DNA of 60,999 nt. It comes from Gammaproteobacteria bacterium (GTDB taxonomy: Bacteria > Pseudomonadota > Gammaproteobacteria > GCA-001735895). The position numbers and the translations under genes are program-made. Positions 8,058-34,459 of this stretch are shown one piece after another. How positions within the stretch are numbered: position 1 is the first letter of the stretch; each line of letters opens with the position of its first letter. The stretch spans positions 1 through 60,999 of the forward strand of contig JBNKPX010000006.1 of NCBI GenBank assembly GCA_050295575.1, in the 5' to 3' direction. The notes under the pieces were generated by a model. The model was not told the DNA's origin, did no database searches, and saw only the letters and a program-made list of their open reading frames with translations.

Positions 8058-8119
8058 ATGTGGCTCACCTCCCGAGAGCGATATTTAACGCAAAAATAAC
8101 GACAAGGATACGTCTGGAG

Positions 8120-8138
8120 CGTGAAAATTACGTGAAAA
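8120..8138. promoter_or_regulatory. Direct-repeat site (11-bp period), candidate OmpR/ColR-family binding box
   Basis: CGTGAAAA-TTA-CGTGAAAA in the divergent promoter region between sco and the 1855-aa gene. Confidence 0.45.
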
Positions 8139-8263
8139 ACCATGGGCTTAGGTGGACCTGGTTCACGAATTTGCAATAAAAAACCTGCAATTCCAAATGC
8201 ATTTATACCTACCTCTAACTGCGTAAATATCTACCCGGTATTACGCTTATACATTATTAGATA

Positions 8264-8280
8264 TGCGGCAGATTGTCGCA
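8264..8280. promoter_or_regulatory. Candidate RegA/PrrA(RoxR)-type box
   Basis: TGCGGC-AGATT-GTCGCA, an imperfect palindrome matching the GCGNC...GNCGC RegA/PrrA pattern. Confidence 0.5.
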
Positions 8281-8412
8281 CTAAAGCCTGTGTTCTACGT
8301 ATATCACCCCTTTACATTCCCTTCTATTATGACTTCCATCAAAAATTGTTTGGGCTGTGCGCCCTGATTTTGAATAGGCGATACAAGTGATGAATGTTAT
8401 GAGGATAACCTA

Positions 8413-11400
8413 ATGAGTAAATCATTAATGTATGAAAGGTTGGTTAGACCCATAGTGGCAACGGCAATGTTTGTCGGGATAAGTGTATCCCAGCAGGCGA
8501 GTGCAGCTACTCTGACCATAAACACAGAAAATAAGGCAGGTCTATCAGCCAATGTCGGTTTCCGCTACCTGGTTGAAGAAGACACCATGTATAAGCCAAC
8601 ACCGGGTACACAGGATAATCAAAGCCTGTCATTTCAATTTCATCGTAGTCATACCCCTGTTGTGGTGGGGGCAGATGGACAGGGTATCCATGGAGAAACC
8701 GCTGCGGGCGAAACTTCAGCGGTCGTTGAGGTTCCTGATAACGGAAATTATTTTGTTTCAGTGCTTCCTTATAAAGGCCATGCCTTGGGTGGTGTGGCGG
8801 TTCAGGTAGGTACGGATCCTGTTACGGCGACGGTTCGTGTAAACGACTACCCAATCCCTACTGCGCAGATCAGTATTCAGGTCTTTGAGGACAATAGCCC
8901 AATTAATGGTGCAATAGACCCAGGTGAACGTGGATTAAATGGTTCCATAGTTGGTGTCGATGGTGAGAAAAAGTTTATACCTTTCCATGTGACTCTGGAA
9001 GATCCAGCGGGCCAGTATGGTGCTGGTGGTGGTCGCGTAGCTTCCGATGCCTACGGCAATCCGTTGGGTACTGATTACTCCGGTATGGATGCAAACGGTA
9101 AGCCTATTGTGAGTTCATATCCTGCTGGTTACGATACCAATGGTATGATTGTTAACCCGGGTGCGCTGACTCCTGGCTCGGTCAAGCTGGTACCTAACGA
9201 TCAGGGTTATCTGGTTATCAAGAACCTGCGTCCTGGTAAGTATGGTGTCATCGTTACTCCTCCAGCTGGTGCCGGATGGAGACAGACTACCTCTATTGAA
9301 GGTACGTTTGTTAACGATGCCTGGGTTAAAGCAGGAAACCCTGAGGTGTTCGTTGAATTTGGTCCTCCAGGCCCTCATGTGGCCGTCGGTTTTGTGCGTG
9401 ATTTTGACTGTATCAATAATTCAAAAATTGATCACACGTCAATTGACCCAGACCTCAATCCCTGTGTAGGTTATATACCTCCTGCAGCAGGAACTGGTGC
9501 GACTATTACCGGTAAGGCTGTGGACAACCATATGTCCCGCTCGCCTGATTTTCAGTTCCATCCTGGTACTGATTTTCCTTCATGTGTCGTGGGTATCAAT
9601 GAATTCACTTCTGGCCAGACCATCTATAACGGCCCCTGTACTAACTCAGCATTTACTATCGAGAACGTACCCCCGGGTCAATACAACCTTTCCATCTTTG
9701 ATGATCCGCTTGATGCAGTAATTGCAAGTCATCCATTTACCGTTGGTGGGAATGCGACTGATGGTTTCACGGTATCTGCGCTTACGATTCCTACTACTGG
9801 ATCAGACGTGAATGGCAATACCACTACAGTAGTTCCAACCTGTACAAATGCTGTCTGTGATCTTGGCGAACTGCCACTGTTCAACTGGTTTTTCAAGCTG
9901 GACACCTCAGAGTTCTTTGATCGCAACGAAAATGGTTTTCGTGATTGTGTGACTACAGCCTGTGATGATCCTGCAGTTGACGATGTACGCATGAATGCTA
10001 GCTCCTTCACCAATAATATCCGCTGGCGCGATGGTCGTATCTATCAGTCAGCAGCGGTAGACGGTGAAGGTTCTGCGCCGTTTAATCAGGTGTTCCCTTT
10101 CTTCCACTGGTTGGTTGCAGAAAGTGATTTCGCCAAGTTCAAGGCGACTGGTGCGACCATTACGGTAGACAATGGTGGTGGTAACAACACGGGTGGTGGT
10201 GCTTTAGGCGATATACTTAATCCTGCAAATGATCTACAGACTAATGGCTATATCGCCCAGTTGCAGGAAACCGATGCGAATGGTATTGCTCTGCAGCCCT
10301 GTAATGATGCCGATCAAACCCAGACTGAATGTACTCATGATGGTGGTTGGTCACTTACCGAAAAGGGTCAGGTTCTGACTCTGGGAGTGCAGGGCTTTCT
10401 GGGGCAGAAATCAGTACTGGAATTTGGTAGAACCAACTACGGTGTAAATGAAAACGGTGGTATTTCAGGTGTGGCTGTGTATGCAATCACCCGTGCTGAA
10501 CACGATCCACGTTATGCGGTAACTGAAATCTGGGAGCCGGGTATTCCTCGCGTACAGTTCGCGCTGTATCAGGATGCTGATTCAGATGGCGTTTCTGATG
10601 ACATTGATGGTGTTGCTGGTTTTATGGAATCAGACGTTGATAACTACCCACTAGGTTGGGCAACCGGTGGCGCCATGGGTCCTGAAGATATCGACCGTGA
10701 TGGTAATACAACTTTCGACTATCACGATGCGATCGACGTAACCTGGTCAGACAGCTGGGATGACAATGAGCCTACCAACTGTCAGGGTTATAACCAGATG
10801 CCTGGTATCGATGATCACCTATGCTTTGATGGTATGCGTAACTGGAACCAGGTCCGGCCAGCAGTATTTGACGGTGGTTATGCGTTCCCTAATTCACCTA
10901 ATGCTGCCAATGTAACTGTGGGTGCTGATGGTAAAGAGTATCTGACCAAGGGTTACTATGTGGTTCAGGCATTCACACCTCCAGGCTATGAGCTGGTAAA
11001 AGAGGAAAGCAAGAACGTCGATTTCGGCGATGAATATGCGATACCTCAATTGCTGCCAGTAGAGTGTGTGGGCGACCTGCATACGGTTCCTGCTCTGCTG
11101 TCTTATGTGACTGCCGCAGATGGTGTTACTCAGGTTGTTGATGGTGATCCCGCAGATTACGCAGCACCTTATGCCGGTGAACAGCGTCCTTTATGTGATA
11201 AGAAACACATCCTCCTGACCGACGGTCGTAATGCGGCTACTGACTTCCACTTCTTCACCGATGTACCTAAAGCGGCACACGTCGTGGGTGGTATCCTTAA
11301 CGATCTGGCGAACGAGTTCAATCCTAGCGCTCCAACCTTCGGCGAGAAATTCGCGCCACCCTGGTTGCCAGTGGCTTTCTATGACTGGTCTGGTAAAGAG

Positions 11401-13980
11401 ATCACTCGTGTTTATACCGATGAATTCGGTAAGTACAACGCGATGCTGCCTTCATCTAGTACAGCGAATGCTGCAAGTCCATCCGGGTATACCCCGAATA
11501 TGATTGTTTCCTGTATGAATGATGCGGGTTATGTAGATGATCCATTCAATCCTGGTAAAAAGATTGTGGATCCTAACCATAATCCACAGTACACCCAGTT
11601 CTGTTACACCTTCCAGTATATGCCTGGTGCAACAACCTATCTGGATACCCCGGTACTGCAGATGTCAGCCTTCGCGGGTTCCGGTTTGCAACTTGACTGT
11701 GAAGCTGCGGATACAACGCCTCTGATCGCTTCGGTGACTGCAGGTGCTCTGGTTGGTCCTTATATTCCAGATCAGGTGAATGGGGATCTGGCATCTCGTA
11801 CCCTGACCATTACTTCGGCAGGGTTAAGAAATGTACTGAATCCTTCATCTAATGAGCTGACTTCCAAGTTCGTAACACGTAACTACGGATTTGGTGCTGT
11901 CGAAGGTAATGTCACTCTGACGAATGAGGCGGGGCAGTCATATAATCTGGTAGGTCTTGACTGGACTGATAGTGTTATTGCTGCTCCAGTAGACGGAAAC
12001 GTGCCCAATGGTCGTTACCAGCTCACCGTAGAGAATGCTGCCGGTGTCGCTTCACCCATGGGTGTCTCTGTTATCGTTGGTCCACTACGTTATGCAGGCA
12101 GTAATGTAATTGAGGTTCATCCTAGCTCTGCTGCTGGTGCTACCCCGCTTCAGGATGCACTGGATAGCGCGACTCGTGGTGATCTGATCCTGGTAGAGGC
12201 GGGTGTTTATGATGAAATGCCTATCATGACGGTGCCGGTCTATCTGCAAGGTGCTGGGGCTTACTCCACTACGATCAATGCTCGCGCCTTACCGGCTGAG
12301 AAGGTTACCGCGTGGAAGAACAAGATTGCTACCCTGCTCGGAACACCAAATGGTTTGATTGGTGACAAGTTCGATCTGTTGCCTGGTCAGAATGCGGGTC
12401 CGATGATGTTTGATACCGAAGAAGGTCCTGGCCTGATGGTGTTAGGCAAGTCTTCTGGTGGTAACCGCTTCAATAATGGTGGAAATAGCTCTGGCTTTGA
12501 CGGTTTTACAGTCACCGGTGCCTCAACTGGTGGTGGTATTTTTGTCAACGGCTACATCAATGGCTTTGATATCAGCAATAACCTGGTTACCGGCAACGAA
12601 GGTACCTACGGTGGTGGTATCCGTATCGGTCATTACAACCTGCTGAATGGCACTGCTTACACCGATAGTAACAACGACAATATCCGTATTCACCATAACT
12701 TTGTGAATATGAACGGTACCCAGAACGGTGCTGGTGGCGGTATTGCGCTGTACAACGGCACCAATAACTACCGTGTGCTCGACAACATGATCTGCGGTAA
12801 CTTCGCAGCGACTGATGGTGCGGGTATAGGTCATCTGGGTCTGAGTTCAGGCGGTCGGATTAAAGATAACAAGGTCATCTTTAATCAGTCTTTCCGTCAA
12901 ATGCCAGGCTTTGAAACCGATGGTGGCGGTATCCTGGTTGCTGGTATGGATTCACAGGGAGCGCTTGGTCTGAGTGAAGGTTCTGGTCATGTGTTTATCG
13001 ATCGCAACCTGATTCAGGGCAACCAGGCAGGTGCTGGTGACGGTGCAGGTATCGCCTTACGTCGTACCAATGGACTGGATATTGCGGCTGACCCCGCCAA
13101 TAACCTGCCCCGTACGCCCTGGTGGCTGGTGCGTATCACCAATAACACTATTGTGAATAACGTAGCGGGTCTGGCTGGTGGCGGTATATCTCTGAAGGAT
13201 GCGCTGAGAGTTGAAATCGAAAACAACACCATTGCCAACAATGAGACGACTGGTACAGCAGGCGGTGCCTTTCAGCTCGGTGGTACACCTGGTCAATCGG
13301 CACCACATACTGCAGGTATTGCTTCGTACGGGCTTGAAACCCTGGCTGGTGTTTCTACCAGTACCATCAACCGCTTCAATAAGGCCTACTCAAACCCACT
13401 GTTGCAAAGCAATATCATCTGGCACAACAAGCAAAGCTACTTTGTGTTAAGTGCTGATGCCAATATTGCTGGTAGTTCGCTGGTGGATGCTGGATACAGT
13501 GATCTGGGCGTAGTTAATGTTCCGGGTACGCTGGATCAGATTCGCTGGAGTCTGGTAACCGATGCTACTACTGGAAACGGTGGTGTAGCTTACCCTGCTG
13601 GCTGGCACATTCAGGATGACACCGACATCGTAGCTGGTGATCTATTTGTGGCTCCATACCTGAACAGTAACCCGGGTCTCAATCCAAAGCAGGTCGAGTT
13701 CCAGACTATGATGGTAGCCCCGGCACTGGATGAGGGCGGTAACTGGATAGATGTACGCTACGCACCCTTGTCCATCAACGATGTGGATGGGCTGAATAAC
13801 GCTATTGACGTTCCATCCGACTACCACCTGACTGCTACTACAGTGGCGATAGACGCGGGCAATCCGAGACGTGGACGTCGCGGCGATGGTCTTGACATCG
13901 ACCTGCAGCCTGGTGTTGTTGACAGCGCGGCCTACATTGGTTCAGCAGTTGATCAAGGTTCAGACGAGGTGCAGCAATGA
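8413..13980 (+). CDS. Large secreted protein (1855 aa): Ig-like/SdrD-B-like repeats, IPT/TIG-like domain, right-handed beta-helix
   Basis: Sec signal ending QQASA, DxDxDG Ca-binding-like loops, many Cys pairs, repeated GGGI/N-x-I-x-x-N beta-helix coils in the C-terminal third, and a C-terminal DYHL...AIDAG...DQGSDE segment. RBS GAGGA. Confidence 0.75.
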   Translation: MSKSLMYERLVRPIVATAMFVGISVSQQASAATLTINTENKAGLSANVGFRYLVEEDTMYKPTPGTQDNQSLSFQFHRSHTPVVVGADGQGIHGETAAGETSAVVEVPDNGNYFVSVLPYKGHALGGVAVQVGTDPVTATVRVNDYPIPTAQISIQVFEDNSPINGAIDPGERGLNGSIVGVDGEKKFIPFHVTLEDPAGQYGAGGGRVASDAYGNPLGTDYSGMDANGKPIVSSYPAGYDTNGMIVNPGALTPGSVKLVPNDQGYLVIKNLRPGKYGVIVTPPAGAGWRQTTSIEGTFVNDAWVKAGNPEVFVEFGPPGPHVAVGFVRDFDCINNSKIDHTSIDPDLNPCVGYIPPAAGTGATITGKAVDNHMSRSPDFQFHPGTDFPSCVVGINEFTSGQTIYNGPCTNSAFTIENVPPGQYNLSIFDDPLDAVIASHPFTVGGNATDGFTVSALTIPTTGSDVNGNTTTVVPTCTNAVCDLGELPLFNWFFKLDTSEFFDRNENGFRDCVTTACDDPAVDDVRMNASSFTNNIRWRDGRIYQSAAVDGEGSAPFNQVFPFFHWLVAESDFAKFKATGATITVDNGGGNNTGGGALGDILNPANDLQTNGYIAQLQETDANGIALQPCNDADQTQTECTHDGGWSLTEKGQVLTLGVQGFLGQKSVLEFGRTNYGVNENGGISGVAVYAITRAEHDPRYAVTEIWEPGIPRVQFALYQDADSDGVSDDIDGVAGFMESDVDNYPLGWATGGAMGPEDIDRDGNTTFDYHDAIDVTWSDSWDDNEPTNCQGYNQMPGIDDHLCFDGMRNWNQVRPAVFDGGYAFPNSPNAANVTVGADGKEYLTKGYYVVQAFTPPGYELVKEESKNVDFGDEYAIPQLLPVECVGDLHTVPALLSYVTAADGVTQVVDGDPADYAAPYAGEQRPLCDKKHILLTDGRNAATDFHFFTDVPKAAHVVGGILNDLANEFNPSAPTFGEKFAPPWLPVAFYDWSGKEITRVYTDEFGKYNAMLPSSSTANAASPSGYTPNMIVSCMNDAGYVDDPFNPGKKIVDPNHNPQYTQFCYTFQYMPGATTYLDTPVLQMSAFAGSGLQLDCEAADTTPLIASVTAGALVGPYIPDQVNGDLASRTLTITSAGLRNVLNPSSNELTSKFVTRNYGFGAVEGNVTLTNEAGQSYNLVGLDWTDSVIAAPVDGNVPNGRYQLTVENAAGVASPMGVSVIVGPLRYAGSNVIEVHPSSAAGATPLQDALDSATRGDLILVEAGVYDEMPIMTVPVYLQGAGAYSTTINARALPAEKVTAWKNKIATLLGTPNGLIGDKFDLLPGQNAGPMMFDTEEGPGLMVLGKSSGGNRFNNGGNSSGFDGFTVTGASTGGGIFVNGYINGFDISNNLVTGNEGTYGGGIRIGHYNLLNGTAYTDSNNDNIRIHHNFVNMNGTQNGAGGGIALYNGTNNYRVLDNMICGNFAATDGAGIGHLGLSSGGRIKDNKVIFNQSFRQMPGFETDGGGILVAGMDSQGALGLSEGSGHVFIDRNLIQGNQAGAGDGAGIALRRTNGLDIAADPANNLPRTPWWLVRITNNTIVNNVAGLAGGGISLKDALRVEIENNTIANNETTGTAGGAFQLGGTPGQSAPHTAGIASYGLETLAGVSTSTINRFNKAYSNPLLQSNIIWHNKQSYFVLSADANIAGSSLVDAGYSDLGVVNVPGTLDQIRWSLVTDATTGNGGVAYPAGWHIQDDTDIVAGDLFVAPYLNSNPGLNPKQVEFQTMMVAPALDEGGNWIDVRYAPLSINDVDGLNNAIDVPSDYHLTATTVAIDAGNPRRGRRGDGLDIDLQPGVVDSAAYIGSAVDQGSDEVQQ

Positions 13981-14039
13981 AAAGTCAATTCATACACAGT
14001 TTGGATAAGGTAAACATTAAAACCGTGAGGTACGGAAAA

Positions 14040-15350
14040 ATGAAAACTTTCTTGAAATACGGGAGCTGTGCTTCGCTACTTGCGATGCTTATGTTACCGG
14101 TCTCACCCGTACAGGCCTCGGTCTTCGTGCAGTGCCCGGGTGATACAGATGGTGATGCCACCTGGAATAGTCCAGGTGAAACACAGCCAGATAACGTGGT
14201 CTGCATGCACCTGAGTAGTGGTGACGGTTATGCCAATATGGCTGATGGCTATCGACAGTATATCTTTGGCTTCGGTGATTTGACTGGTGTGCCCCCCGAA
14301 GATGCTGGCGATGCGGGCATTCTTAATGCCCAGATCTCGGCGCCGACTATCCAGTTGAGGCAGGGGGAGGAGTTTTACCTGACCCTGACCAACACCGGTA
14401 TGCTCGAGCGCCCTGATCTATTCGATGGGCATAGCGTGCATTTTCATGGTTTTCCAAATGCCTCCAGTGTGTTCGACGGGGTACCCGATGCCTCTATCGC
14501 GATCAATATGGGGGCTTCGATGACCTATTTCTACAACATAGTGGAGCCGGGAACATACCTCTACCACTGCCACGTAGAGGCGGCGGAGCACATGCAGATG
14601 GGTATGCAGGGTAACCTGTATGTTCATCCTGCACAGGATGGCACAGCCTATGATTATCCATCACGTGATGGAACCATCAGAAGCTATACCAAGTTCGCCT
14701 ATAACGATGCTGATCCAGTGAATGGTACGGGTGATCCCGGATCTACCGGCTACGATGTGGAATATCCACTACAGCTGATAGCTTTTGATCACAACTTTCA
14801 TGACAAGCATATCGCGGTGCAACCTTTGCCGTTCGCAGAGATGAAGGATGATTATCATATGTTTAATGGTCGTGGCTACCCGGCTTCGGTTCAGCCAGCT
14901 GACTATTATGTTACCAATCCAGGGGCTGCACAGACGACTATAGGCACTCGTATAGCCGATCTGGTTAATGGACAGGCTATTACTGATGGCTGGAAGCAAT
15001 CTGGAACTGAGTCAACTAACACACAGCCTTACTCGTCCAAAATAACGGTTGCAGCGGGTCAAAAGCTGTTGCTGCGTATCACAAACCTGAGTATCACCAA
15101 CTTCCATACAGTGACGGCTTTAGGATTGCCGATGAAGGTCATCGGTCAGGGTGGTCGTGAAATGGTGGATAAGTATGAAACTTCTTCGGTGAATCTGGGT
15201 GGTGGTGAAGCCTATGACGTCATCATTGATACCATGGGTATAACGCCTGGAACATACTTTGTATATACCAACGAGCTGCACCAGTTGAGTAACAGAGAAG
15301 AAAGTTTTGGTGGCGCGATGACAGAAATTGTCGTCACTCCAGCGATTTAA
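14040..15350 (+). CDS. Two-domain multicopper-oxidase-family chain A (type-1 Cu site plus 4 cluster His in domain 1)
   Basis: Sec signal (ATG 14040 preceded by GAGG; the ORF extends upstream to 13977). Motifs HSVHFHG and YHCHVEAAEHMQMGM. Domain 2 lacks Cu motifs. Confidence 0.9.
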   Translation: MKTFLKYGSCASLLAMLMLPVSPVQASVFVQCPGDTDGDATWNSPGETQPDNVVCMHLSSGDGYANMADGYRQYIFGFGDLTGVPPEDAGDAGILNAQISAPTIQLRQGEEFYLTLTNTGMLERPDLFDGHSVHFHGFPNASSVFDGVPDASIAINMGASMTYFYNIVEPGTYLYHCHVEAAEHMQMGMQGNLYVHPAQDGTAYDYPSRDGTIRSYTKFAYNDADPVNGTGDPGSTGYDVEYPLQLIAFDHNFHDKHIAVQPLPFAEMKDDYHMFNGRGYPASVQPADYYVTNPGAAQTTIGTRIADLVNGQAITDGWKQSGTESTNTQPYSSKITVAAGQKLLLRITNLSITNFHTVTALGLPMKVIGQGGREMVDKYETSSVNLGGGEAYDVIIDTMGITPGTYFVYTNELHQLSNREESFGGAMTEIVVTPAI

Positions 15351-15361
15351 TTTAGGAGAAT

Positions 15362-16807
15362 ATGATGAATATCTTTAAATCATACCGAAAAACGGGGGTC
15401 GCCCTGGCAGCGGTTTCCCTGATGACTCTGTCATTCGGTGTTCAGGCTGAGATTCAAGGCATACAAGGACCCGTGTTCGATCTGTATGCCAAGCAATTTC
15501 AGATTGCAACACCCGATGGTGACAGTATCCGCATGTGGGGTTTTGGTACAAAGGATGCGACAACAGGGGTGATAACACCTCAGTATCCGGCGCCAACATT
15601 GTTTGCTAATGAAGGCGACACCATTTCTATAACGGTGCATAACATCGATATCCCTCAGCAGGTAGCCCTGGCATTTCCTGGTCAGGGGGCACAGACCAAG
15701 ACCTGTAATATAGGTAATCCTTTTTCGGTTTCTGGCTGTTACGAGCTAACTGCTGAAAAGCTGAATGTTGTTCCTGCCAGCGATAATGGCGTACATTCCA
15801 TTACTTACAGCTTTACCGTCAGGCCGGGTACCTATATGTATCAGGCTGGGGTAAACCCTCAAATCCAGATGGATATGGGGTTGGTCGGTGCGCTGATAGT
15901 TCGTCCAACCATGCAGGTTGGCGATTTAACTACGCCTGACTATCATGCGGTTGGTCTGGCCTACGATAACGCAGCTACGGTTTATGACAATGAGTTTCTG
16001 TTCTTCCTGAGCGAGATGGATCCCAAGCTGCATTATCTGGCGGAACTGGATCAGGTGGAAAACTTCGATAATGCTGCTTACAGCAGTACATTGTTCTTCA
16101 TCAATGGTCGAAACTCTCCCGATACCCTGGCAGGTGATTTCATTCCGCAGCTACCCAATCAGCCTTACGGTTCGATTGTTGGCATGCATCCTGGGCAAAG
16201 GATATTACTACGCGTGTTGAATGCCGGTCGTAACCAGCATCCATTGCATCTGCATGGTAACCATTTCAAGCAGATTGCGCGTGATGGCTATCTGATCGGT
16301 CCACGTGATGCTATTACGGGTAACCTGATTAAGTTGAGCCCGGTTGTGAACTACACCCTTGGAGCAGTACAAAGCTCTACCAGTGACCTTATCTTTGAGT
16401 GGACAGGAAAGGGACTAGGCTGGGATATGTACGGTAAACCGCATGTCTCTGCTACTCATCCCAATACCTGTACCGATGTGCAAAACAACTATAGCCATGC
16501 ACCAGAGCCGGATGGTTATGACGACACTTATTTTGAATGGTGTGGTTTAGCCGGTGATCCGGTCCCCACTGACCATGGCCAGGAGCTTCCTGTAGTACTG
16601 CCTGAAAATCTGGATCTTGCCTTTGGTGGATTCTGGGGTGGAAGTCCTTACCTGGGAAGTACAGGTACATTACCAGTCGGTGAGGGTGGACTTAACCCAG
16701 CAGGCGGCATGGTGTTTATGTGGCACTCTCATTCTGAGCGTGAGTTGACCAATAACGATATCTATCCTGGCGGCATGCTGACCATGATGATCCTGAGCCC
16801 TTATTAG
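15362..16807 (+). CDS. Two-domain multicopper-oxidase-family chain B (4 cluster His in domain 2, no type-1 Cys)
   Basis: Sec signal. Domain 1 is degenerate (GTYMYQAG). Domain 2 has HPLHLHGNH and WHSHSE. Confidence 0.88.
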   Translation: MMNIFKSYRKTGVALAAVSLMTLSFGVQAEIQGIQGPVFDLYAKQFQIATPDGDSIRMWGFGTKDATTGVITPQYPAPTLFANEGDTISITVHNIDIPQQVALAFPGQGAQTKTCNIGNPFSVSGCYELTAEKLNVVPASDNGVHSITYSFTVRPGTYMYQAGVNPQIQMDMGLVGALIVRPTMQVGDLTTPDYHAVGLAYDNAATVYDNEFLFFLSEMDPKLHYLAELDQVENFDNAAYSSTLFFINGRNSPDTLAGDFIPQLPNQPYGSIVGMHPGQRILLRVLNAGRNQHPLHLHGNHFKQIARDGYLIGPRDAITGNLIKLSPVVNYTLGAVQSSTSDLIFEWTGKGLGWDMYGKPHVSATHPNTCTDVQNNYSHAPEPDGYDDTYFEWCGLAGDPVPTDHGQELPVVLPENLDLAFGGFWGGSPYLGSTGTLPVGEGGLNPAGGMVFMWHSHSERELTNNDIYPGGMLTMMILSPY

Positions 16808-16817
16808 GAGAAACAAA

Positions 16818-19205
16818 ATGAAACGTTCAATCATATCCGCCGCAATTCTGGCTGCTATGGGTTTAGGTACGGCAACATCTGCCTCCGCTCTTACACTGGA
16901 TCTGTGTGCTGGAGAATTCGAGATAACCTCTCAGTCTATAGATGGTAATACTACGCCGATTAAAATGTGGGGTTATGCGCTGGGAACCATGACTGCTGGT
17001 GCCTCTGCCAGTGGCATGGTTTGTGTCAATAAACCGACTGCGCCAGGTCCGCGCATAACGGTCCCTGTGGGTGATCCAGAACTGGTGATTCATTTGCATA
17101 ACGCTTTACCACGAGCTACCTCTTTGATTATTCCTGGCACGGTAAAGGTTGGTGCGAATGCAATGACTCCTGTTTTCTTTACCGATAACAAATTAAACCA
17201 GCGGGTCCGTTCGTTTGATAAAGAAGTAGCACCGGCAGGCATGGAAACCTATAGCTGGTCAAACCTCCAACCCGGAAGTTATATGTATCAATCGGGAACG
17301 CATCAGCAGGTTCAGGTTCAGATGGGGCTTGCTGGCCCTGCGACCAAGGACTTTGCTGCGGGTCAGGCATATGCAGGAGCCAATTCTGTATACGCACAGG
17401 ATACCCTGTTGATCTATAGTGAGATCGATCGAGTGATCCATGATGGAGTGGCTGCTGGCCAATATAACGAGAGTGATATGCAGAGCACGGTGCACTATGC
17501 ACCCAAGTACTTCAACCTGACGATTGTCAATAATGGGTTGACTGGTTCAGCATTGTTCAATGATGTGCTGGTGTGGAAGATGCCACCAAATCAGCGTCCA
17601 TTAGTGCGTATGTTTAATGCCAGTAGCAAGATTCATGTACCTACGGTACTGGAAGCCGGTTTTGACGTGATTGCTGAAGATGGCAAGCAATATCCTAATG
17701 TGCATAAGGAATATGCGGTTGCCCTGCCTCCGCTGAAAACCAAGGATGCATTTTTGAATATCACTGGTGAAGGCTTCGCTTTTGGACCATTTTTTCCACC
17801 CGTTGGGTCATCCTTCCGCCTGACTGATGCAGCGATGTCGGTGAGTAATCCGATACCAGCTACCGGGGCGGTATTAGCTCTTGCTGAGCATCATGAAATC
17901 GCTAACGGCAGTGACAACGGTATGGTTGTTCATATCGAGATCGAACCTCAGCCAGGCTATAGCAGTACTACACCATTGACCGATGCAACTATGATAGCCA
18001 GGCGTGATGAAGCTCAGGTCGATGAAGGTGGAATGGTTAATATCAATGTCGTTGGCAATGATTTAAATGCTACTGGTGCCGTGTTGACTGTCACTTCTGC
18101 ACCCAAGCATGCTGAAAGCTATACCATCAACGGTGGAACTATCAGTTATCAGCATGATGCAACTGAAGCGGGCAGGGATTCATTGATCTACACACTCACC
18201 AAAGGTACAGAGGTTTCATCTGCTGCTGTGGTGATTGCAGTGAATTCATCCAACGATGCGCCTATAGCAAATCCTGATAGCGCTACAGTGAAAGTGGGTC
18301 AAACTGTTGAAATCCGTGTAACGGATAACGACACCGACGCGGACTCACGAGAGCTTAAGGTTCTATCAGTTGATGCTAGTGGTTTAAGCAATGCCCAGTT
18401 AGTCAGCTTTGTTGATAAAGCAATTACCGTAACCGGTGTTACTGCGGGCGATGCTGAAACAATGAGCTACGTGGTATCGGATGGTGACGGTGGTTTAGCT
18501 ACCGGTCAGCTAACGCTCTCAGTGGTAGACGCAACTAGCGGTACGGGTGGTATCTATGGTAGTGGCAATAATGGTAGCGGAACGGGTGCTGGTACGACCG
18601 GTAGCAAGCCTGAAACCAATGAAGACAAGTTCGAAGTGCATGAGCACGGTATCTACAGCACCGTGGGTAACAAGATCCTGGGTGTACTGGCGAACGACAT
18701 CGAGAATGGCGGTAAGGTAAGTCCTACTCTGGCTATCTACCCTGAGCATGGTTCGGTTGAAATGTTTGAAGATGGTACTTTCGTGTATACGCATGATGGT
18801 TCCGAATCTAGCGAAGATGGCTTTACCTACGAGGTTTACAATGACTTTGGTTCCACCAAAGGCGAAGTGGAGATCAAGATACTGCCTAAAATGGATCCAC
18901 CAAGAACCAATAATGACAAGGCTAGAACCAATGTGGATACACCAGTTACTATCGATATCCTGAGAAATGACAAGGATAAAGATAGCAACAAGAGAGCAGC
19001 AACTATTGTGATTGATGTCTCTAGTGTATCTCCTGGTGCTAAAGTTGAGGTAGTAAATCAGAGGGTTGTCTACACTCCTGCACCCGGTTTCTCCGGTAGA
19101 GACAGTTTTAAATATAGTCTGAAAGACGATAAAACTGGAGAGGCATCACATCGATCTGCAAGGGTTAGTGTGAAAGTGAAAAGCCATCATAAACATGACG
19201 ATTAA
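16818..19205 (+). CDS. Ligand-less cupredoxin chain C fused to tandem Ig/cadherin-like repeats
   Basis: Sec signal. The MCO scaffold is recognisable (PGPRITV, GSYMYQSGTHQQVQVQMGL) but lacks HxH/HCH motifs. Four repeats of the P-x-x-N-x-D...NDxD...DSFxY type. C-terminus HHKHDD. Confidence 0.8.
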   Translation: MKRSIISAAILAAMGLGTATSASALTLDLCAGEFEITSQSIDGNTTPIKMWGYALGTMTAGASASGMVCVNKPTAPGPRITVPVGDPELVIHLHNALPRATSLIIPGTVKVGANAMTPVFFTDNKLNQRVRSFDKEVAPAGMETYSWSNLQPGSYMYQSGTHQQVQVQMGLAGPATKDFAAGQAYAGANSVYAQDTLLIYSEIDRVIHDGVAAGQYNESDMQSTVHYAPKYFNLTIVNNGLTGSALFNDVLVWKMPPNQRPLVRMFNASSKIHVPTVLEAGFDVIAEDGKQYPNVHKEYAVALPPLKTKDAFLNITGEGFAFGPFFPPVGSSFRLTDAAMSVSNPIPATGAVLALAEHHEIANGSDNGMVVHIEIEPQPGYSSTTPLTDATMIARRDEAQVDEGGMVNINVVGNDLNATGAVLTVTSAPKHAESYTINGGTISYQHDATEAGRDSLIYTLTKGTEVSSAAVVIAVNSSNDAPIANPDSATVKVGQTVEIRVTDNDTDADSRELKVLSVDASGLSNAQLVSFVDKAITVTGVTAGDAETMSYVVSDGDGGLATGQLTLSVVDATSGTGGIYGSGNNGSGTGAGTTGSKPETNEDKFEVHEHGIYSTVGNKILGVLANDIENGGKVSPTLAIYPEHGSVEMFEDGTFVYTHDGSESSEDGFTYEVYNDFGSTKGEVEIKILPKMDPPRTNNDKARTNVDTPVTIDILRNDKDKDSNKRAATIVIDVSSVSPGAKVEVVNQRVVYTPAPGFSGRDSFKYSLKDDKTGEASHRSARVSVKVKSHHKHDD

Positions 19206-19233
19206 CCTCAAAAGTTAATCAATTGAATTAACT

Positions 19234-19247
19234 GTGCAGGGACGCAC
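19234..19247 (+). promoter_or_regulatory. GGA-loop hairpin (possible CsrA site) between the oxidase and T2SS genes
   Basis: GTGC-AGGGAC-GCAC. Confidence 0.3.
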
Positions 19248-19407
19248 GGGAGATTCATTTATTAATCTCTAACACATATTTTTCTTTTTCTTGCCAGGGC
19301 CTGTTAACACTAATAAACATGGATACATTCGATATATGCAGCAAGGTTGTTCCTGAGCTCCTGCTTTATCGCTTTATTCTTTTACTGTAGCTTTAATATC
19401 TGTCACT

Positions 19408-21192
19408 ATGATTCGAAATATTCCAACATATAGTAGTTTTGAAGATCTGTCGAAAGAAGATATGAGCGCAGAGAATCCAGCAACTGAAAGCGGTCAGAGT
19501 TTTTTATTCCCTGATGATGAGCTTCAGTTTGTTCAGTCATTACATGCAAAATCCATCCTGTCGAAAGGCGATCTCAAGAAAATAGAGATGCTGCTTAAGT
19601 CAGGCAAGACCGATCTTTCGGTTGTCCAGTTAGTTTTAAGTTTAGGTCTGATATCAGAAAGTGATTTGCTCAATCATCTTTCGTCATTAGGTCGTATGCG
19701 CATTCTACAGCCTGAAGATTATCCTGATGAGCTTTATGCGAGGGCTACTTTTAATGCGCAGTTTCTCAAGCAGTATCAGATGGTAGTGATTTCTGACTCC
19801 GATGAGATCATGGAAATCTGTATTAATGATCCCTTTGCGCGTGGTCTGCAGCAGGCACTTTCCTTTGCTATCGGTAGCAAATTTCTAAAAATTCGTCTTG
19901 GTTTTAAAAAGGATATCGAAGAGGCGCTGGAGCGTATTCTGATGACCAAGGCCGAAGCATTTTCGAATGATAAATTCGATGAGATAGACGCCGTATTACT
20001 GGATCGGGATATACAGCAACTAAAAGAACTGGCCAGTGAAGCGCCGGTTATCAAGGTGGTTAACACCATTATCAAGGAAGCAATTCTAAAGAATTCTTCG
20101 GATATACATCTAGAGCCACAAAGCCATCAACTTAAGGTACGTAATCGTATCGATGGCGTTTTAATTACAGTACGTGAGGTGCCGGTCAACATGGCGGCGG
20201 CTGTCGTATCCCGTATCAAGATTCTGTCAGATCTGGATATTGCCCAGCGCCGAGTTCCGCAGGATGGTCGATTGAATATGAATATCGACGGTCAGGATGT
20301 GGATATCCGTGTTTCCATTATGCCGACCATTCATGGTGAAAGTGTTGTACTCAGGTTGCTGTACAAGAAATCGATTAACTTTGATTTTAACAGCCTGGGC
20401 TATTCAGAATATAACCAGAGTCGTATCTTCCAGATGCTGAATAAGCCACATGGCCTGATTCTGGTGACTGGCCCAACGGGAAGCGGAAAATCAACTTCCC
20501 TGTATGCGATGCTGCAACAGATTAATGATTCGGAAAAGAAGATTGTTTCGGTAGAAGATCCTGTCGAATACAAGATTGAAGGCATAAACCAGGTTCAGGT
20601 TAACCCCGAGGTTGGGGTGAGTTTCTCCAATGCCCTAAGAGGTATTGTGCGACATGATCCGGAAGTGATTATGGTGGGTGAGATGCGTGACTCGGAAACC
20701 GCAGGCATTGCCATCCGTGCCTCCATGACCGGGCATTTAATTCTTACTACCCTGCATACCAATACGGCTATCTCAAGTATTGATCGTCTGATGGATCTGG
20801 GTGTGGAAAAGGCGTTTGTATTTTCTGCCCTGATCGGTGTGGTAGCGCAAAGACTGGTACGGAAACTATGTGATCAATGTAAGGTGCCAGTGCAGTCTTC
20901 TTTGATTACATTACATACAGAAACTGGAGATGCCAGCATTACAGATCAGATGGGTTGTTACGAGCCGGTAGGCTGTGAGCATTGTAATGGCACCGGGTAT
21001 AAAGGTCGTTTATCGATCTGTGAAGTGATGATATTAAATGATGATTTTCGCTCCGAGGCTTTGTCTGGTCACAGCAATATGCAACAACTGGCCTGGAAGC
21101 ATGGCATGCGCCCGATGGTGGTCGATGGGTTTGAAAAAGTAAAATCGGGACAGACGACTGTTGACGAATTGTTCCGCATGGTTCTGGAGTAA
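19408..21192 (+). CDS. gspE: Type II secretion ATPase GspE (start may be 19462)
   Basis: Walker A GPTGSGKST, EDPVEY, RHDPEVIMVGEMRD, TLHTN, and tetracysteine motif CDQC/CEHC. Confidence 0.93.
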   Translation: MIRNIPTYSSFEDLSKEDMSAENPATESGQSFLFPDDELQFVQSLHAKSILSKGDLKKIEMLLKSGKTDLSVVQLVLSLGLISESDLLNHLSSLGRMRILQPEDYPDELYARATFNAQFLKQYQMVVISDSDEIMEICINDPFARGLQQALSFAIGSKFLKIRLGFKKDIEEALERILMTKAEAFSNDKFDEIDAVLLDRDIQQLKELASEAPVIKVVNTIIKEAILKNSSDIHLEPQSHQLKVRNRIDGVLITVREVPVNMAAAVVSRIKILSDLDIAQRRVPQDGRLNMNIDGQDVDIRVSIMPTIHGESVVLRLLYKKSINFDFNSLGYSEYNQSRIFQMLNKPHGLILVTGPTGSGKSTSLYAMLQQINDSEKKIVSVEDPVEYKIEGINQVQVNPEVGVSFSNALRGIVRHDPEVIMVGEMRDSETAGIAIRASMTGHLILTTLHTNTAISSIDRLMDLGVEKAFVFSALIGVVAQRLVRKLCDQCKVPVQSSLITLHTETGDASITDQMGCYEPVGCEHCNGTGYKGRLSICEVMILNDDFRSEALSGHSNMQQLAWKHGMRPMVVDGFEKVKSGQTTVDELFRMVLE

Positions 21193-21194
21193 TT

Positions 21195-22388
21195 GTGTAT
21201 AAATACCAGGCCTTGAATAACAAGGGGGAGTTTGTTGAAGGAGAGTTAAGTCTGTCCAGCGAAGAGCGGGTTGTGGAAGAATTGCTCAAACTTAATTATG
21301 TTCCCATCAAGGTTAGCAGCGTAAAACCTGAAAAAACTATTTCTCTCAAACTTTCCATAAAAGACAGGTTTGAGGTCCAGCAGTTTTTTGAAAATCTCTA
21401 TGATTATCTGGATTCAGGTTTATCTATCGATAAGGCGTTGGAGCTAGAAGCCAGAGGTATGGATCACTCAAGCGGGCAGGACATGATCGTCGAATTACTC
21501 GATCAGGTTCGTCAGGGAGGCAGCCTTTCGGAAGCGATGAAATCGCAGCCTGAATATTTTACTTCTTTGCACACGGGTATTGTTCAGGTAGGTGAAGAAA
21601 CCGATTCGCTTACTGAATCGTTCCAACTACTTTCTTCACTCATCAGTGATCTCAATGAGTTTAAGCAAAAGATAAAATCCGCGCTGGTTTACCCGATGAT
21701 CCTGACTGCTGTCATGTTTCTCTCCATCCTGATTTTATTTGGTCTGGTGATACCGCGCTTTGAAGCTTTATTTGTCAGTATGGGTATAAAAATGGAAGGT
21801 TTAACCGGCTTTATCGTCGGTATATCGAATGTATTGACCGAACAGTATCAACTGCTGCTGATTGCTTTACTGGGGATCATTATGTTGATGCGTAACCTGG
21901 CTGGTCGATTTAAGCAGGATATAAAATTTACCGGTTTTTTGCTCAGTCTGCCCATGATTGGTGACATGATTAAGCAATATAACCTGTATCTGATTTCGAG
22001 GATTCTTTCGATACTGCTGGCAAAGAATATTACCGTGCTGAAATCGCTGGAATATGTCAGGGATGCTATCGCGAATCTTGTATATAAAAAAGAGATAGAC
22101 AGCATGGCCCTTGAAATCAATAAAGGGACAGCAATGAACAATGTGTTTAGTAGCAGCTTATTCAGTCAGCATTTCATTTATATTGTCACCATAGGTGCAG
22201 AAACAGGACGCCTTGCCGAATCATTTTCCAAGCTTGCGAAGTTTTACTATAAACAGCTGGATGTTCGTATCAGGGCACTAATGGTTTATGTAGAGCCCAT
22301 CATTATCATGGTACTGGGCCTGGTGGTCGGTATGATAGTGGTGACTATGTTGCAGGCTATTCTCAGCATCAATGAGTTGGTAGTTTAG
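21195..22388 (+). CDS. gspF: Type II secretion inner-membrane protein GspF
   Basis: GspF/PilC pattern VGEE...KIKSALVYP and GAETGRL...EPIII, with three TM segments. Confidence 0.92.
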   Translation: MYKYQALNNKGEFVEGELSLSSEERVVEELLKLNYVPIKVSSVKPEKTISLKLSIKDRFEVQQFFENLYDYLDSGLSIDKALELEARGMDHSSGQDMIVELLDQVRQGGSLSEAMKSQPEYFTSLHTGIVQVGEETDSLTESFQLLSSLISDLNEFKQKIKSALVYPMILTAVMFLSILILFGLVIPRFEALFVSMGIKMEGLTGFIVGISNVLTEQYQLLLIALLGIIMLMRNLAGRFKQDIKFTGFLLSLPMIGDMIKQYNLYLISRILSILLAKNITVLKSLEYVRDAIANLVYKKEIDSMALEINKGTAMNNVFSSSLFSQHFIYIVTIGAETGRLAESFSKLAKFYYKQLDVRIRALMVYVEPIIIMVLGLVVGMIVVTMLQAILSINELVV

Positions 22389-22441
22389 TAATTCTATATG
22401 GCTGCAGACGGTGTTAATTTAATCAAAGAACTGGAAAAGAA

Positions 22442-22861
22442 ATGAAACAGAGAACAGCAGGTTTCACCCTGGTCGAATTACTGGTGGTGTTAATTATTCT
22501 GGGGCTGGTTGCGAGTATTGCAGGCCCTAATGTTATGAAGTATCTGGGCAGTTCAAAATCTAAAACTGCCAGGCTACAGTTAAAGGAGATTGAGTCATCC
22601 GTCGAGCTTTTTTTCCTCGACACCGGACGCTATCCACCGAATGATCCGGGACTGAAGGCTCTGGTTAATAATGATGCTTCGATTGCGGGATGGAGTGGTC
22701 CCTATTTCAAAAGTGGACAGATTCCGCTTGATCCCTGGGGTAACAATTACCTGTACCTGTCACCCGGAGAGCATGGGCCTTTCGATCTGATGAGCCTGGG
22801 AGCTGATAACCAGCCAGGTGGTGAAGGTGATGACAAGGATGTGACTAACTGGGCGCAATGA
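22442..22861 (+). CDS. gspG: Major pseudopilin GspG
   Basis: G|FTLVELLVV prepilin motif, DTGRYP, DPWGNNY, SLGADNQPGGEGDDKDV. Confidence 0.96.
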   Translation: MKQRTAGFTLVELLVVLIILGLVASIAGPNVMKYLGSSKSKTARLQLKEIESSVELFFLDTGRYPPNDPGLKALVNNDASIAGWSGPYFKSGQIPLDPWGNNYLYLSPGEHGPFDLMSLGADNQPGGEGDDKDVTNWAQ

Positions 22862-22862
22862 T

Positions 22863-23303
22863 ATGCGTAAAACCGGCTTTACTCTGGTTGAAGTTCTTGT
22901 TGTTCTAACCATAGTTTCGGTGGTGGTCGGATCTATCAGTTATGTCGTCATTGGTGGAGGAAATGATTTAAAGTCAGTGTCTCAGGATATTGTTCAGTCA
23001 ATGCGACTGTTACAGCAAAGATCCATACGCGATGACAGGCCCTACCAGATCGAGATCGATCTGAATGCCAATACTATCAGTTTTCTGGAAAAGGAAATTG
23101 CTATCCCTGAAGCTTTTTCTGTCACGGTAAAAACAGCTGCAAGTCAGGTAATAGAGGACAGGCTGGTCGGTATGACCTTTTTCCCCGATGCAAGCTCTAC
23201 CGGAGGTTCGATTGTGCTGGAATCGGATAAGGAAGCCTATGAAATAATGGTGGTCTGGATTTCTGGAAAAATTCAAACCAGCTACCGTAGTAAATCTTCC
23301 TGA
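22863..23303 (+). CDS. gspH: Minor pseudopilin GspH
   Basis: G|FTLVEVLVV, FFPDASSTGG, and position after gspG. Confidence 0.85.
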   Translation: MRKTGFTLVEVLVVLTIVSVVVGSISYVVIGGGNDLKSVSQDIVQSMRLLQQRSIRDDRPYQIEIDLNANTISFLEKEIAIPEAFSVTVKTAASQVIEDRLVGMTFFPDASSTGGSIVLESDKEAYEIMVVWISGKIQTSYRSKSS

Positions 23304-23692
23304 TGAGAGGCTTTAGTTTGTATACCCATCACGCCACCTCAAATCATCAAAACGGTATGACGCTACTGGAAGTGATGGTGGGTTTTGTGATCTTTAGTGC
23401 ATCGCTGGTAGCTATTCTGGACTATGTGTCCAATCAGATATATCTGAACCATTTAACAGAAAAAAACCAGCACAAAGTTCGTCTGATTTATGACTATTCC
23501 CTGACCCAGGAGATGGGGGTAGATGCGCAGCAGTCTTTTGCATCAACCCTGACCGATTTCAATCTTTCATTTGATTCGACGGTTATAGATTCCTTCGAAA
23601 GCAGAAGAGGGAATATGGTGTTAACTAAAACCATAATCTCTGTTGAGGACGGGGGCAGTTCCTATGACTGGTCTATCTATGAAATTAACTAG
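23303..23692 (+). CDS. gspI: Minor pseudopilin GspI
   Basis: G|MTLLEVMVG prepilin motif and gene order. Confidence 0.75.
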   Translation: MRGFSLYTHHATSNHQNGMTLLEVMVGFVIFSASLVAILDYVSNQIYLNHLTEKNQHKVRLIYDYSLTQEMGVDAQQSFASTLTDFNLSFDSTVIDSFESRRGNMVLTKTIISVEDGGSSYDWSIYEIN

Positions 23693-23701
23693 CAGGATAG
23701 T

Positions 23702-24313
23702 GTGGGCCAGATGAACCTCAGACCCTCAGTATGCATAAAATCAGGACAGTGTATTCAGCAAGGTTTTACGCTGGTTGAAATGCTGGTTTCGCTGGTACTT
23801 AGTGCAATTATATTTGTCAGTGCTTACCAGGTAATCTCCAACCTGATCCAGTATCAGGTTCGTTATAACGAAAATAGTGAAAGGCAGATGGATCGCCTGT
23901 TGCTGAGAAGTATGATTGGCCAGATTTTAAGTAAGGGGCTACATCAGTCTGATCTTTATTTTAAGATACAGAAAAATCCATTTTTTAAAGGTAATTCGGA
24001 TTCCATTCAAATTATCTCAAGAGCATACAGTGATCATTTTGATGTGCCTGGATATCGCATTTACAGTCTATCGGTAAATAACAATGAATTGTTTGTCAGT
24101 TATAAGCGTTTTGATGAAGAGTCGGTATTTGGTGAAGCGGTAAAGCAAACCAGTGGTATCAGAATAGAGAAGATAGGTTTTAGATATTATCTTGATGGCG
24201 AATGGCTGGATCGATGGAGTCAGGTAGATAGCATTCCAAAGCTGGTAAAAGTAATCATAACCCTGCCTGATAATAATACCTTTGAATGGGTCAATCAGAC
24301 AGGGCAGGCATGA
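23702..24313 (+). CDS. gspJ: Minor pseudopilin GspJ
   Basis: G|FTLVEMLVS and the C-terminal W-x-D-R-W...PKLVKV pattern. Confidence 0.8.
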   Translation: MGQMNLRPSVCIKSGQCIQQGFTLVEMLVSLVLSAIIFVSAYQVISNLIQYQVRYNENSERQMDRLLLRSMIGQILSKGLHQSDLYFKIQKNPFFKGNSDSIQIISRAYSDHFDVPGYRIYSLSVNNNELFVSYKRFDEESVFGEAVKQTSGIRIEKIGFRYYLDGEWLDRWSQVDSIPKLVKVIITLPDNNTFEWVNQTGQA

Positions 24314-25125
24314 TGTTTGTACGGCGCACAAGAAGATGTAGTCAGGGCTCAATTTTGCTGTATGTGTTATGGATTCTGGTGGTTATATCAGCACTTGCTT
24401 TTAAATTATCTTCTGCTTCCAGAGTGGTCATGACCAAACAGGTTTCAGAGGTCAGTCAGATCAAAAAAAAACTGCAACTAAGATCTGCAATACAGTTCGC
24501 CCGCTTTAAAATAAACAGTAATAATTGGGAAAATATAAAATTTGAACAAAATTTGAACGACCAGCGGATTTCTATACAGATTTATAATGAATCCGGCTTT
24601 GTCTCGCTCTATGATCTGAGTAGTCAGTCACTAAAAAATGTACTCGATAGCGCTAACATAAGCAGCGATGGTCTGGGTGATTTTAAGTATCTGGTCGAAG
24701 AAAAAAATCTGCGGTTTAATGACTTTGCAGAGTTAACCCAGTTTGAAGGTATAACAGAACAAGAGGTGAACGCGTTAATTCCTTATGTGAGTATCTACCA
24801 TGAGGATGCAGTTAACCCAGACAAGTCTCCGGCATCGGTTTTATTGAAGCTAGAAGGCGTTGACCAGTATCGGGTGAATAAAATAATAGAAAGCACTGAT
24901 GCGGAAGAAAAAAAGGTGCTCAGGAAGGAGGTTGTAGAGATTCTTAAGTCGCATAATTTTGCCACCTCCGAGAATGAAACTAATTATTTTCGCTTACACA
25001 TTTCGCTAGATTCCCGTTTATACAGGGTATTTCTACGATATGACCGGCGCAGTAAAGGTTTTGTTGTGGTGAATATGATTTCCCCGGTTGATATCTCCAG
25101 GGAAGTTCTGGATAAGTCATCCTGA
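24310..25125 (+). CDS. gspK: Minor pseudopilin GspK
   Basis: G|SILLYVLW (no Glu at +5, as is typical of GspK), NESG, and the FAELTQFEGI helix-hairpin segment. Confidence 0.8.
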   Translation: MMFVRRTRRCSQGSILLYVLWILVVISALAFKLSSASRVVMTKQVSEVSQIKKKLQLRSAIQFARFKINSNNWENIKFEQNLNDQRISIQIYNESGFVSLYDLSSQSLKNVLDSANISSDGLGDFKYLVEEKNLRFNDFAELTQFEGITEQEVNALIPYVSIYHEDAVNPDKSPASVLLKLEGVDQYRVNKIIESTDAEEKKVLRKEVVEILKSHNFATSENETNYFRLHISLDSRLYRVFLRYDRRSKGFVVVNMISPVDISREVLDKSS

Positions 25126-25168
25126 AGTATCAGGGTTTATCAAATAAACATGATTGGGCTAGAAATTA

Positions 25169-25618: not shown

Positions 25619-25620
25619 TT

Positions 25621-31148: not shown

Positions 31149-31173
31149 GAACCGAAGTCAGGCGACCTAAGCC

Positions 31174-31629: not shown

Positions 31630-31641
31630 TGGGGGGGGACC

Positions 31642-34407: not shown

Positions 34408-34459
34408 AACTTATTGATTTATTCGTCTTTGACTATGCAGTCGTAATTCTGAGAAAAAT

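Follow-up and report, generated by a model that had tools for sequence, protein, structure and literature searches.

According to the accessible part of a 2026 report (PMC13151041), two-domain multicopper oxidases (2dMCOs) are trimers, the enzyme studied there is a homotrimer, and types are set by the position of the type-1 (T1) copper site. The trimeric 2dMCO Nmar_1354 (9CCK) is termed an 'alpha-alpha-alpha-prime heterotrimer'; the available sections of that report give it as one gene product, with full ligand sets in all subunits, which differ by pendant-domain loss only (PMC11761707). In the type-C enzymes 3g5w (the blue copper oxidase of Nitrosomonas europaea) and 2zwn (the metagenomic mgLAC), the T1 site lies in domain 1, within an HCH-x5-H motif, and the trinuclear cluster is formed across the subunit interface by four His of domain 1 and four His of domain 2. 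Both are homotrimers in which each chain carries all ligands, giving three T1 sites and three clusters. Ceruloplasmin-type multicopper oxidases consist of a single chain of six cupredoxin domains, with several T1 sites and one trinuclear cluster at one interface. Here we describe three adjacent genes, A, B and C, in a stretch of 60,999 nucleotides from a Gammaproteobacteria bacterium (contig JBNKPX010000006.1; the whole stretch is called the window). The encoded chains follow the type-C plan, but unlike in 3g5w and 2zwn the domain-1 ligand set is present in A only and the domain-2 set in B only, with no ligands in C, which leaves one T1 site and one cluster per presumed trimer. Compared with the ceruloplasmin type, by description only, this locus has three gene products and one T1 site.

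Read from the sequences, this division of ligands is conserved in hundreds of bacterial species and is not yet described: a literature search for a multicopper oxidase with cluster ligands split between gene products returned no such description, and the related work that it did return concerns fungal small-subunit laccases, not a split-ligand enzyme. The preferred interpretation, to which we assign a probability of roughly 0.68, is that A, B and C form a secreted pseudo-trimeric oxidase, A·B·C, with one T1 site and one trinuclear cluster, tethered to a fourth protein, U, encoded upstream of A. A heteromeric enzyme is well supported by comparative sequence evidence and one structure prediction.

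The chains are adjacent two-domain cupredoxin paralogs, as the original prediction had stated, and open reading frames (ORFs), Pfam and hhalign agree on this. Cu-oxidase domains score above the Pfam cut-off in A (Cu-oxidase_3, 1.1e-14; Cu-oxidase, 4.4e-13), B (Cu-oxidase_3, 3.7e-11; Cu-oxidase_2, 8.5e-6) and C (Cu-oxidase_3, 1.4e-4), which places all three in the multicopper oxidase superfamily. In hhalign, C matches both A (probability 99.4, E 4.7e-22) and B (probability 100, E 8.7e-56) across the two domains. The lack of copper motifs predicted for C holds, but its description as a two-domain chain applies only to the first ~380 amino acids (aa), which form the cupredoxin core; the rest is a series of Big_9/cadherin-like repeats. 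The AlphaFold2 (AF2) model of the core has a predicted local distance difference test (pLDDT) score of 81.6 and a predicted TM-score (pTM) of 0.82, and its top PDB folds in Foldseek are 3g5w_A (E 9.7e-16) and 2zwn, with a TM-score by target of 0.65-0.66. Intergenic distances are -4 bases between U and A, 11 between A and B, and 10 between B and C. Judged from the alignments, the true start of A is probably the conserved Met22 (14040), which precedes a signal-peptide-like stretch and is invariant in alignment A1 and nearly so in alignment A2.

In a scan with A that took a single genome for each species, an A relative is encoded at no fewer than 527 places, and the best 80 were examined; these loci yielded 76 rows for A and 80 rows for B. 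The T1 site is found in A alone and consists of H152, C198, H205 and M210 (76/76 rows). The cluster His of A are H155, H157, H197 and H199, and those of B are H296, H298, H455 and H457; the full set of eight, arranged as four HxH pairs, is reached by A and B jointly and by no single chain. The predicted 4+4 supply of His by A domain 1 and B domain 2, with neither sufficient alone, is thus upheld by the alignments and the conserved rows. W454, H455, S456 and H457 of B are invariant in alignment A3. Ten His occur in residues 1-400 of C, none of them within an HxxHxH or H[CS]H motif. All four motifs begin exactly at the coordinates given for them, 14430 (A H152), 14565 (A H197), 16238 (B H293) and 16724 (B H455). 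The second A motif had been recognised correctly but spaced incorrectly, as HCHxxxxHxxxxM; the real arrangement is HCH-x5-H-x4-M, as in 3g5w.

Among solved structures A is closest to 3g5w (E 9.7e-15) and 2zwn, both two-domain oxidases of type C. Domain 1 of A aligns with the HxxHxH and HCH-x5-H motifs of 3g5w, and in domain 2 'FHTVTALGLPM' lies opposite 'HAIHTHGH', leaving no ligand His. Domain 1 of B places 'YQAGVNPQIQMDMG' opposite 'YHCHVNVNEHVTM' of 3g5w, again with no ligand His, and its domain 2 aligns 'HPLHLHG' and 'WHSH' with 'HAIHTHG' and 'IHDH'. These alignments, together with the 76/76 rows of A and the row counts of B, agree with what had been proposed for each domain: a full T1 site and four cluster His in A domain 1, an empty A domain 2, an empty B domain 1, and four cluster His with Ser in place of the T1 Cys in B domain 2. 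With two cupredoxin domains and a T1 site in the N-terminal one, A has the features of a type-C 2dMCO; the cluster His of domains 1 and 2 that define this type in every protomer are missing from A domain 2, B domain 1 and all of C. A single-chain oxidase was rejected, since no chain alone holds all the cluster His. No NCBIfam equivalog cut-off is reached by A, B or C (for example, CopA TIGR01480 gives 66.9 bits against the 478.95 required), and their scores with the CopA, CueO, laccase and ascorbate oxidase models are all far below the cut-offs.

A and B might instead form a nitrite-reductase-like or other mononuclear copper site, not an O2-reducing trinuclear cluster. The position of T1 in domain 1 corresponds to the NirK layout, and Cu nitrite reductases are among the weaker PDB matches of A, but four HxH pairs (eight His) are kept where NirK has a three-His site, and the best matches are the oxidases 3g5w and 2zwn, which makes such a site very improbable. 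A as NirK itself was rejected: TIGR02376 gives 30.4 bits where its cut-off is 296.3, and the ligands and best matches of A point elsewhere.

The complementary ligand pattern is retained in homologous clusters, a test that the original prediction had named: the His of the two B motifs are present in 78/80 and 77/80 rows, and HxxHxH in 80/80 B proteins of a second clade. Gene order, counted only at loci with enough flanking sequence, is equally constant in the examined loci. B comes after A in 75/75 loci, U is upstream of A in 71/71, and C comes after B in 69/70; at the exception (L029), a long-tailed B is followed at once by C. Carriers among the 80 loci, metagenome-assembled genomes (MAGs) and isolates as labelled, belong to Gammaproteobacteria, Betaproteobacteria, Nitrospirae, Acidobacteria, Phycisphaerales, Desulfobacterota, Binatia and Bdellovibrionota; the gamma- and betaproteobacterial carriers include Gallionella, Sideroxyarcus, Thiobacillus, Rhodoferax ferrireducens, Methylocaldum and Amphritea pacifica (strain ZJ14W, locus L058). 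When 175 sequences of A, B and C are placed in one tree, each type is separated by one clean split (support 1.0, 0.988 and 0.988), which points to an old triplication after which A, B and C have remained associated. A B ortholog (E <= 1e-40) occurs in 5 of 300 genomes of the window's class, including the source genome, and at the same threshold was not found in the sole other genome of the same family (99% complete); the cluster is therefore patchy in its distribution, like an accessory module. The source genome is 74% complete, and its other Cu-oxidase genes lie on another contig only. There, at G000:C20:12717-23163, two open frames of 676 and 489 aa give Cu-oxidase_3 matches of 129.9 and 117 bits; these are presumably genes for ordinary multicopper oxidases.

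The second, more distant clade was reached through fusion proteins, and 80 of its 164 metagenome loci were examined. The order U-A-B-C is present here as well. Both A motifs are found in 54/54 A proteins, and WHSH in 66/80 B proteins; of the 14 B proteins without it, 10 were inspected and all 10 have [LF]HSH. Neither HxxHxH nor H[CS]H occurs in the C proteins of this clade (0/48). Named free-standing B-like relatives in the clade belong to Actinomycetota (Baekduia, Streptosporangium, Sphaerisporangium, Jatrophihabitans, Thermoleophilia). Searched with A, a set of 1.84 billion representative proteins yielded 240 clusters at E <= 1e-30. Twelve A relatives at 35-45% identity were compared, and 11/12 keep the full domain-1 set; 10 of these 11 have no HxH past the T1 motif, and one has a single HAH. 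P0357 (447 aa, 41% identity to A) has lost both HxxHxH and HCH and is a ligand-free A-like paralog.

In some relatives the chains are joined in one polypeptide, and, as far as the encoded sequences go, the B-C and U-A fusions tie the chains physically. In ten B-C fusions of 866-1177 aa (JGI, ENA, Logan and NCBI sources), a B unit bearing HP[FM]HPH and WHSH is joined through a linker to a ligand-free C-like unit that begins at a conserved 'LCA' without a second signal peptide. The N-terminal part of one of them, P0132, is absent, so that only HSH is visible. P0121, considered as a further B-C fusion, seems frameshifted and was left out of the count. P0156 (707 aa) is composed of two tandem units, each closest to the C-like half of a fusion, and could represent either a C-C fusion or a degenerate B-C one. 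U-A fusions are encoded at L022, L032 and L078, where the U frame enters A at 'VQCPGD' without an intervening signal peptide. The 150 best representatives include 17 U-A fusions, 1747-2816 aa long, whose A unit forms the extreme C-terminus; all 17 combine a U-homologous N-terminal part (462-1069 bits) with the A motifs. Twelve more representatives, 758-1438 aa in length, carry A at their C-terminal end and may be truncated U-A fusions.

The complex of A (residues 48-457) and B (residues 30-481) was predicted with a separate 59-row alignment for each chain and with three controls. The A+B complex score is 0.90, and that of the best control is 0.00. The score mark is reached by 58/80 solved complexes and 2/110 mismatched pairs, a calibration that is only rough here since own alignments were used. 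Runs share at least 95% of contacts, and the partner pLDDT is at least 88. In the predicted binding geometry, the confident interface comprises residues 151, 155, 157-165 and 199-204 of A and residues 292, 294, 296, 298-301 and 457-460 of B, so that the two His-bearing faces meet. The convergence of the eight His at the interface of A domain 1 and B domain 2, proposed in the original prediction, is seen in the model for A H155, H157 and H199 opposite B H296, H298 and H457, and the two remaining His, A H197 and B H455, are not among the listed contacts. In domain 2 of A, the invariant GGGE loop (407-412) contacts B residues 294, 296, 332 and 457. Residues 50, 52 and 54 of A, in an N-terminal extension, also contact B in the model. 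The extension (residues 50-90; 14124-14246) includes the invariant Q52-C53...C76, a nearly invariant H78 and a DxDGD stretch, and could accommodate a disulfide or a Ca site.

Several observations weigh against the A·B·C oxidase. A H197 and B H455 lie outside the contacts listed above. Homotrimeric two-domain oxidases are already solved, and for this reason the score of 0.90 may show mere likeness to known enzymes. The structure prediction covers A and B only, and a preference for the heteromer over homotrimers of A, B or C is outside its scope. The B-C fusions are confined to one divergent clade, and their long linkers impose no geometry. The AF2 model of the B-C fusion P0129 is too poor to read domain packing (pLDDT 61.6, pTM 0.40); it was folded with alignment A7, from which free C sequences were excluded, since MAFFT aligned them to the B half. 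The cluster is also present in MAGs whose labels point to strict anaerobes (Desulfatibacillum, Desulfococcus, Syntrophobacterales), which is odd for an O2-reducing enzyme. With regard to copper, activity and expression, the organism is known here from sequence alone.

The same limits bear on the possibility that the chains form separate non-oxidase homotrimers, with a trimer of A as a T1 electron carrier with incomplete extra copper sites, a trimer of B for copper binding or storage, and a structural trimer of C. All solved two-domain relatives are homotrimeric as far as the available parts of the sources describe them, and the complex prediction had no homomer control. Against this stand the exact complementarity of the eight His, invariant across two deep clades, and the opposition of the His-bearing faces in the A-B model; there is no clear selective reason for keeping half-sites in proteins that never meet. 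We regard separate homotrimers as improbable.

In the A·B·C oxidase, A, B and C would be anciently diverged paralogs of one type-C two-domain multicopper oxidase, assembled as a pseudo-threefold, six-domain ring. Its sole catalytic site would lie at the interface of A domain 1 and B domain 2, where A would supply the T1 copper site and four cluster His and B the other four, for four Cu per complex. Electrons would enter at the T1 copper of A, pass over the Cys198-His197/His199 bridge and reach the trinuclear cluster, where O2 would be reduced to water. The donor may be Fe(II) or a mineral, Mn(II) or a cytochrome. C would occupy the third ring position as a copper-free structural subunit bearing immunoglobulin (Ig)-like adhesin repeats, and U would be tethered to the N-terminus of A, to which it is covalently joined in many relatives. 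The complex would be exported, in this organism via the adjacent type II secretion system, and matured by the SCO1 copper chaperone and possibly also by the subtilase; a MofC-like cytochrome c may serve it.

The place of C in this arrangement can be questioned. A and B could be the catalytic pair, with C outside the ring as a separate cupredoxin-derived adhesin, anchor or substrate-binding module and the third position held by A, by B or left open. The complex score exists for A+B only, the Ig-like adhesin tails of C are variable, and C is the most diverged chain, with a mean column identity of 29% compared with 40% and 42% for the other two. C nevertheless retains the 2dMCO fold, is reduced in some taxa to the bare two-domain core (331-349 aa), follows B in 69/70 loci and a lengthened B in the 70th, and is fused to B in ten proteins; a second A in an odd-numbered ring would also leave a half-site unpaired. 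An external C is accordingly judged unlikely.

A wider role for the A·B·C oxidase with U can be put forward only tentatively, as possible and still doubtful. U·A·B·C could be a terminal oxidase module, secreted, tethered at the surface and using copper only, that serves the uptake of extracellular electrons, fed at its single T1 site by solid Fe(II) minerals or by the MofC-like cytochrome and reducing O2 outside the cell. It would be a three-gene bacterial re-invention of the ceruloplasmin plan, with two of three sites silenced and the dead subunit turned into an adhesin carrier. An obligate one-site heterotrimer, if real, would be a new quaternary design compared with homotrimers holding three identical sites, and living genomes would capture the transition by which a symmetric trimer becomes an asymmetric enzyme of six domains. 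Annotation would change as well: automatic pipelines name A and B 'multicopper oxidase' and count them separately, though neither can be one alone. The family spans iron oxidisers, sulfur oxidisers, methanotrophs, Nitrospirae and Actinomycetota.

A probable counterpart has been reported in an iron oxidiser. The accessible text of He et al. 2017 describes, in Sideroxydans lithotrophicus ES-1 (Slit_1812-1818), three tandem multicopper oxidase genes accompanied by a mofC-like gene and by a copper chaperone, the oxidase proteins being predicted extracellular and of unknown function (PMC5566968). In the portion of Keffer et al. 2025 at hand, Slit_1816-1818 reach a higher abundance on magnetite than on Fe(II)-citrate; two of the three proteins show the canonical motifs of multicopper oxidases, and the third, a larger protein, has adhesin-like domains (PMC12016527). 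Unlike the present proposal, neither paper, in these portions, proposes a heteromer or a split cluster. A similar set is present at L040 (labelled Gallionella), where the genes after U, A, B and C are a small ORF, an Ig-domain subtilase, SCO1/SenC and a cytochrome c that also carries a periplasmic-binding domain (Cytochrom_C and Peripla_BP_6). The window holds these accessory parts in rearranged order. Three tandem cupredoxin genes, SCO1 and a mofC-like cytochrome are thus seen in L040 and in the window, and the Sideroxydans cluster, compared by description only, probably belongs to this family, with U, A, B and C as Slit_1819-1816; this assignment is made from gene content alone and from the accessible descriptions. 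Since the probable counterpart is raised on magnetite, according to the available text, the system may bear on microbial oxidation of solid minerals.

By analogy, and as far as the accessible report describes it, the Iodidimonas enzyme IOX (IoxA/IoxC) offers the closest biochemical parallel for a secreted oxidase made of several proteins. It is an extracellular multicopper oxidase purified with a second protein, its locus includes SCO1/SenC genes, and gsp genes flank it (PMC9415286). Unlike A and B, IoxA reportedly combines all four copper-binding regions within a single chain; the likeness is drawn by description.

Beyond what the original prediction covered, the unit includes U (8413-13980) as a fourth conserved partner and a set of accessory genes (Table 1).

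Table 1. Coordinates of the cupredoxin genes, their copper motifs and neighbouring genes in the window. Accessory homologs were counted within the retrieved flanks of the 80 examined loci.
Feature	Positions	Strand	Length	Description
A	13977-15350	+	457 aa	Two-domain cupredoxin chain; ORF list and Pfam
A motif H152-S-V-H155-F-H157	14430-14447	+		T1 His and two cluster His; invariant, 76/76 rows
A motif H197-C198-H199-x5-H205-x4-M210	14565-14606	+		Two cluster His; T1 Cys, His and Met; invariant, 76/76 rows
B	15362-16807	+	481 aa	Two-domain cupredoxin chain; ORF list and Pfam
B motif H293-P-L-H296-L-H298	16238-16255	+		His in 78/80 rows, 2 gaps
B motif H455-S456-H457	16724-16732	+		Ser at the place of the T1 Cys; His in 77/80 rows, 3 gaps
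C	16818-19205	+	795 aa	ORF list and Pfam
C core	16818-17987	+	first ~380 aa	Ligand-free two-domain cupredoxin unit
C tail	17988-19205	+		Four Big_9/cadherin-like Ig repeats; Pfam Big_9 2.4e-42
U	8413-13980	+	1855 aa	Secreted; SdrD_B/fn3_3/CarboxypepD_reg and right-handed beta-helix; stop overlaps the start of A
SCO1/SenC copper chaperone	7470-8057	-		Divergent from the operon; Pfam SCO1-SenC 1.3e-17; homolog in 39/80 loci
gspE, F, G and four pseudopilin-sized ORFs	19408-25125	+		ORF list; names from reading the sequences, not from a family scan
Secreted protein	25169-25618	+	149 aa	No Pfam match; homolog in 57/80 loci
Subtilase S8 with Calx-beta domain	25621-27507	+		Pfam Peptidase_S8 6.4e-45; homolog in 50/80 loci
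MofC-like c-type cytochrome	27504-29027	+	507 aa	One CVNCH motif, at residue 53; BLAST homologs in 33/80 loci
Type II secretion L-like, M, 151-aa ORF and secretin	29024-33738	+		Pfam PilN, T2SSM_b and Secretin

U obtains Atlas cluster scores of 0.99-0.94 for SdrD_B/fn3_3/CarboxypepD_reg/beta-helix proteins, and no CxxCH motif is found in it. Second U-like genes are located near the cluster at L040:1-4323, L065:7587-12005 and L072:17646-21227. The tails of C vary among taxa and are different or absent at other loci. At L077:12536-16237 (labelled Rhodoferax ferrireducens) the tail consists of five DUF11 repeats instead of Big_9/cadherin repeats, and at L012 (Phycisphaerales) C has no tail at all.

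The region 19408-33738 holds a full type II secretion set interleaved with the 149-aa protein, the subtilase and the MofC-like cytochrome (25169-29027), an arrangement that suggests a dedicated export system. Homologs of gspE/F/G adjoin the cluster in its closest relatives (L001-L005, L007 and L008), and type II secretion genes also adjoin it in L058, L073 and L075. Homologs of the 149-aa protein mostly sit directly after C. A promoter and terminator scan of 7900-19600 returned fewer sites than shuffled sequences (13 against a mean of 18.8; 6 against 8.5). An FHA-domain protein (6596-7441, minus strand) adjoins SCO1, is divergent from U and is kept in the seven closest loci (L001-L007) only. 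Directly past the secretin, the stretch 33760-36416 encodes a response regulator of the LuxR type, a regulator of the OmpR type and a histidine kinase, which possibly regulate the cluster.

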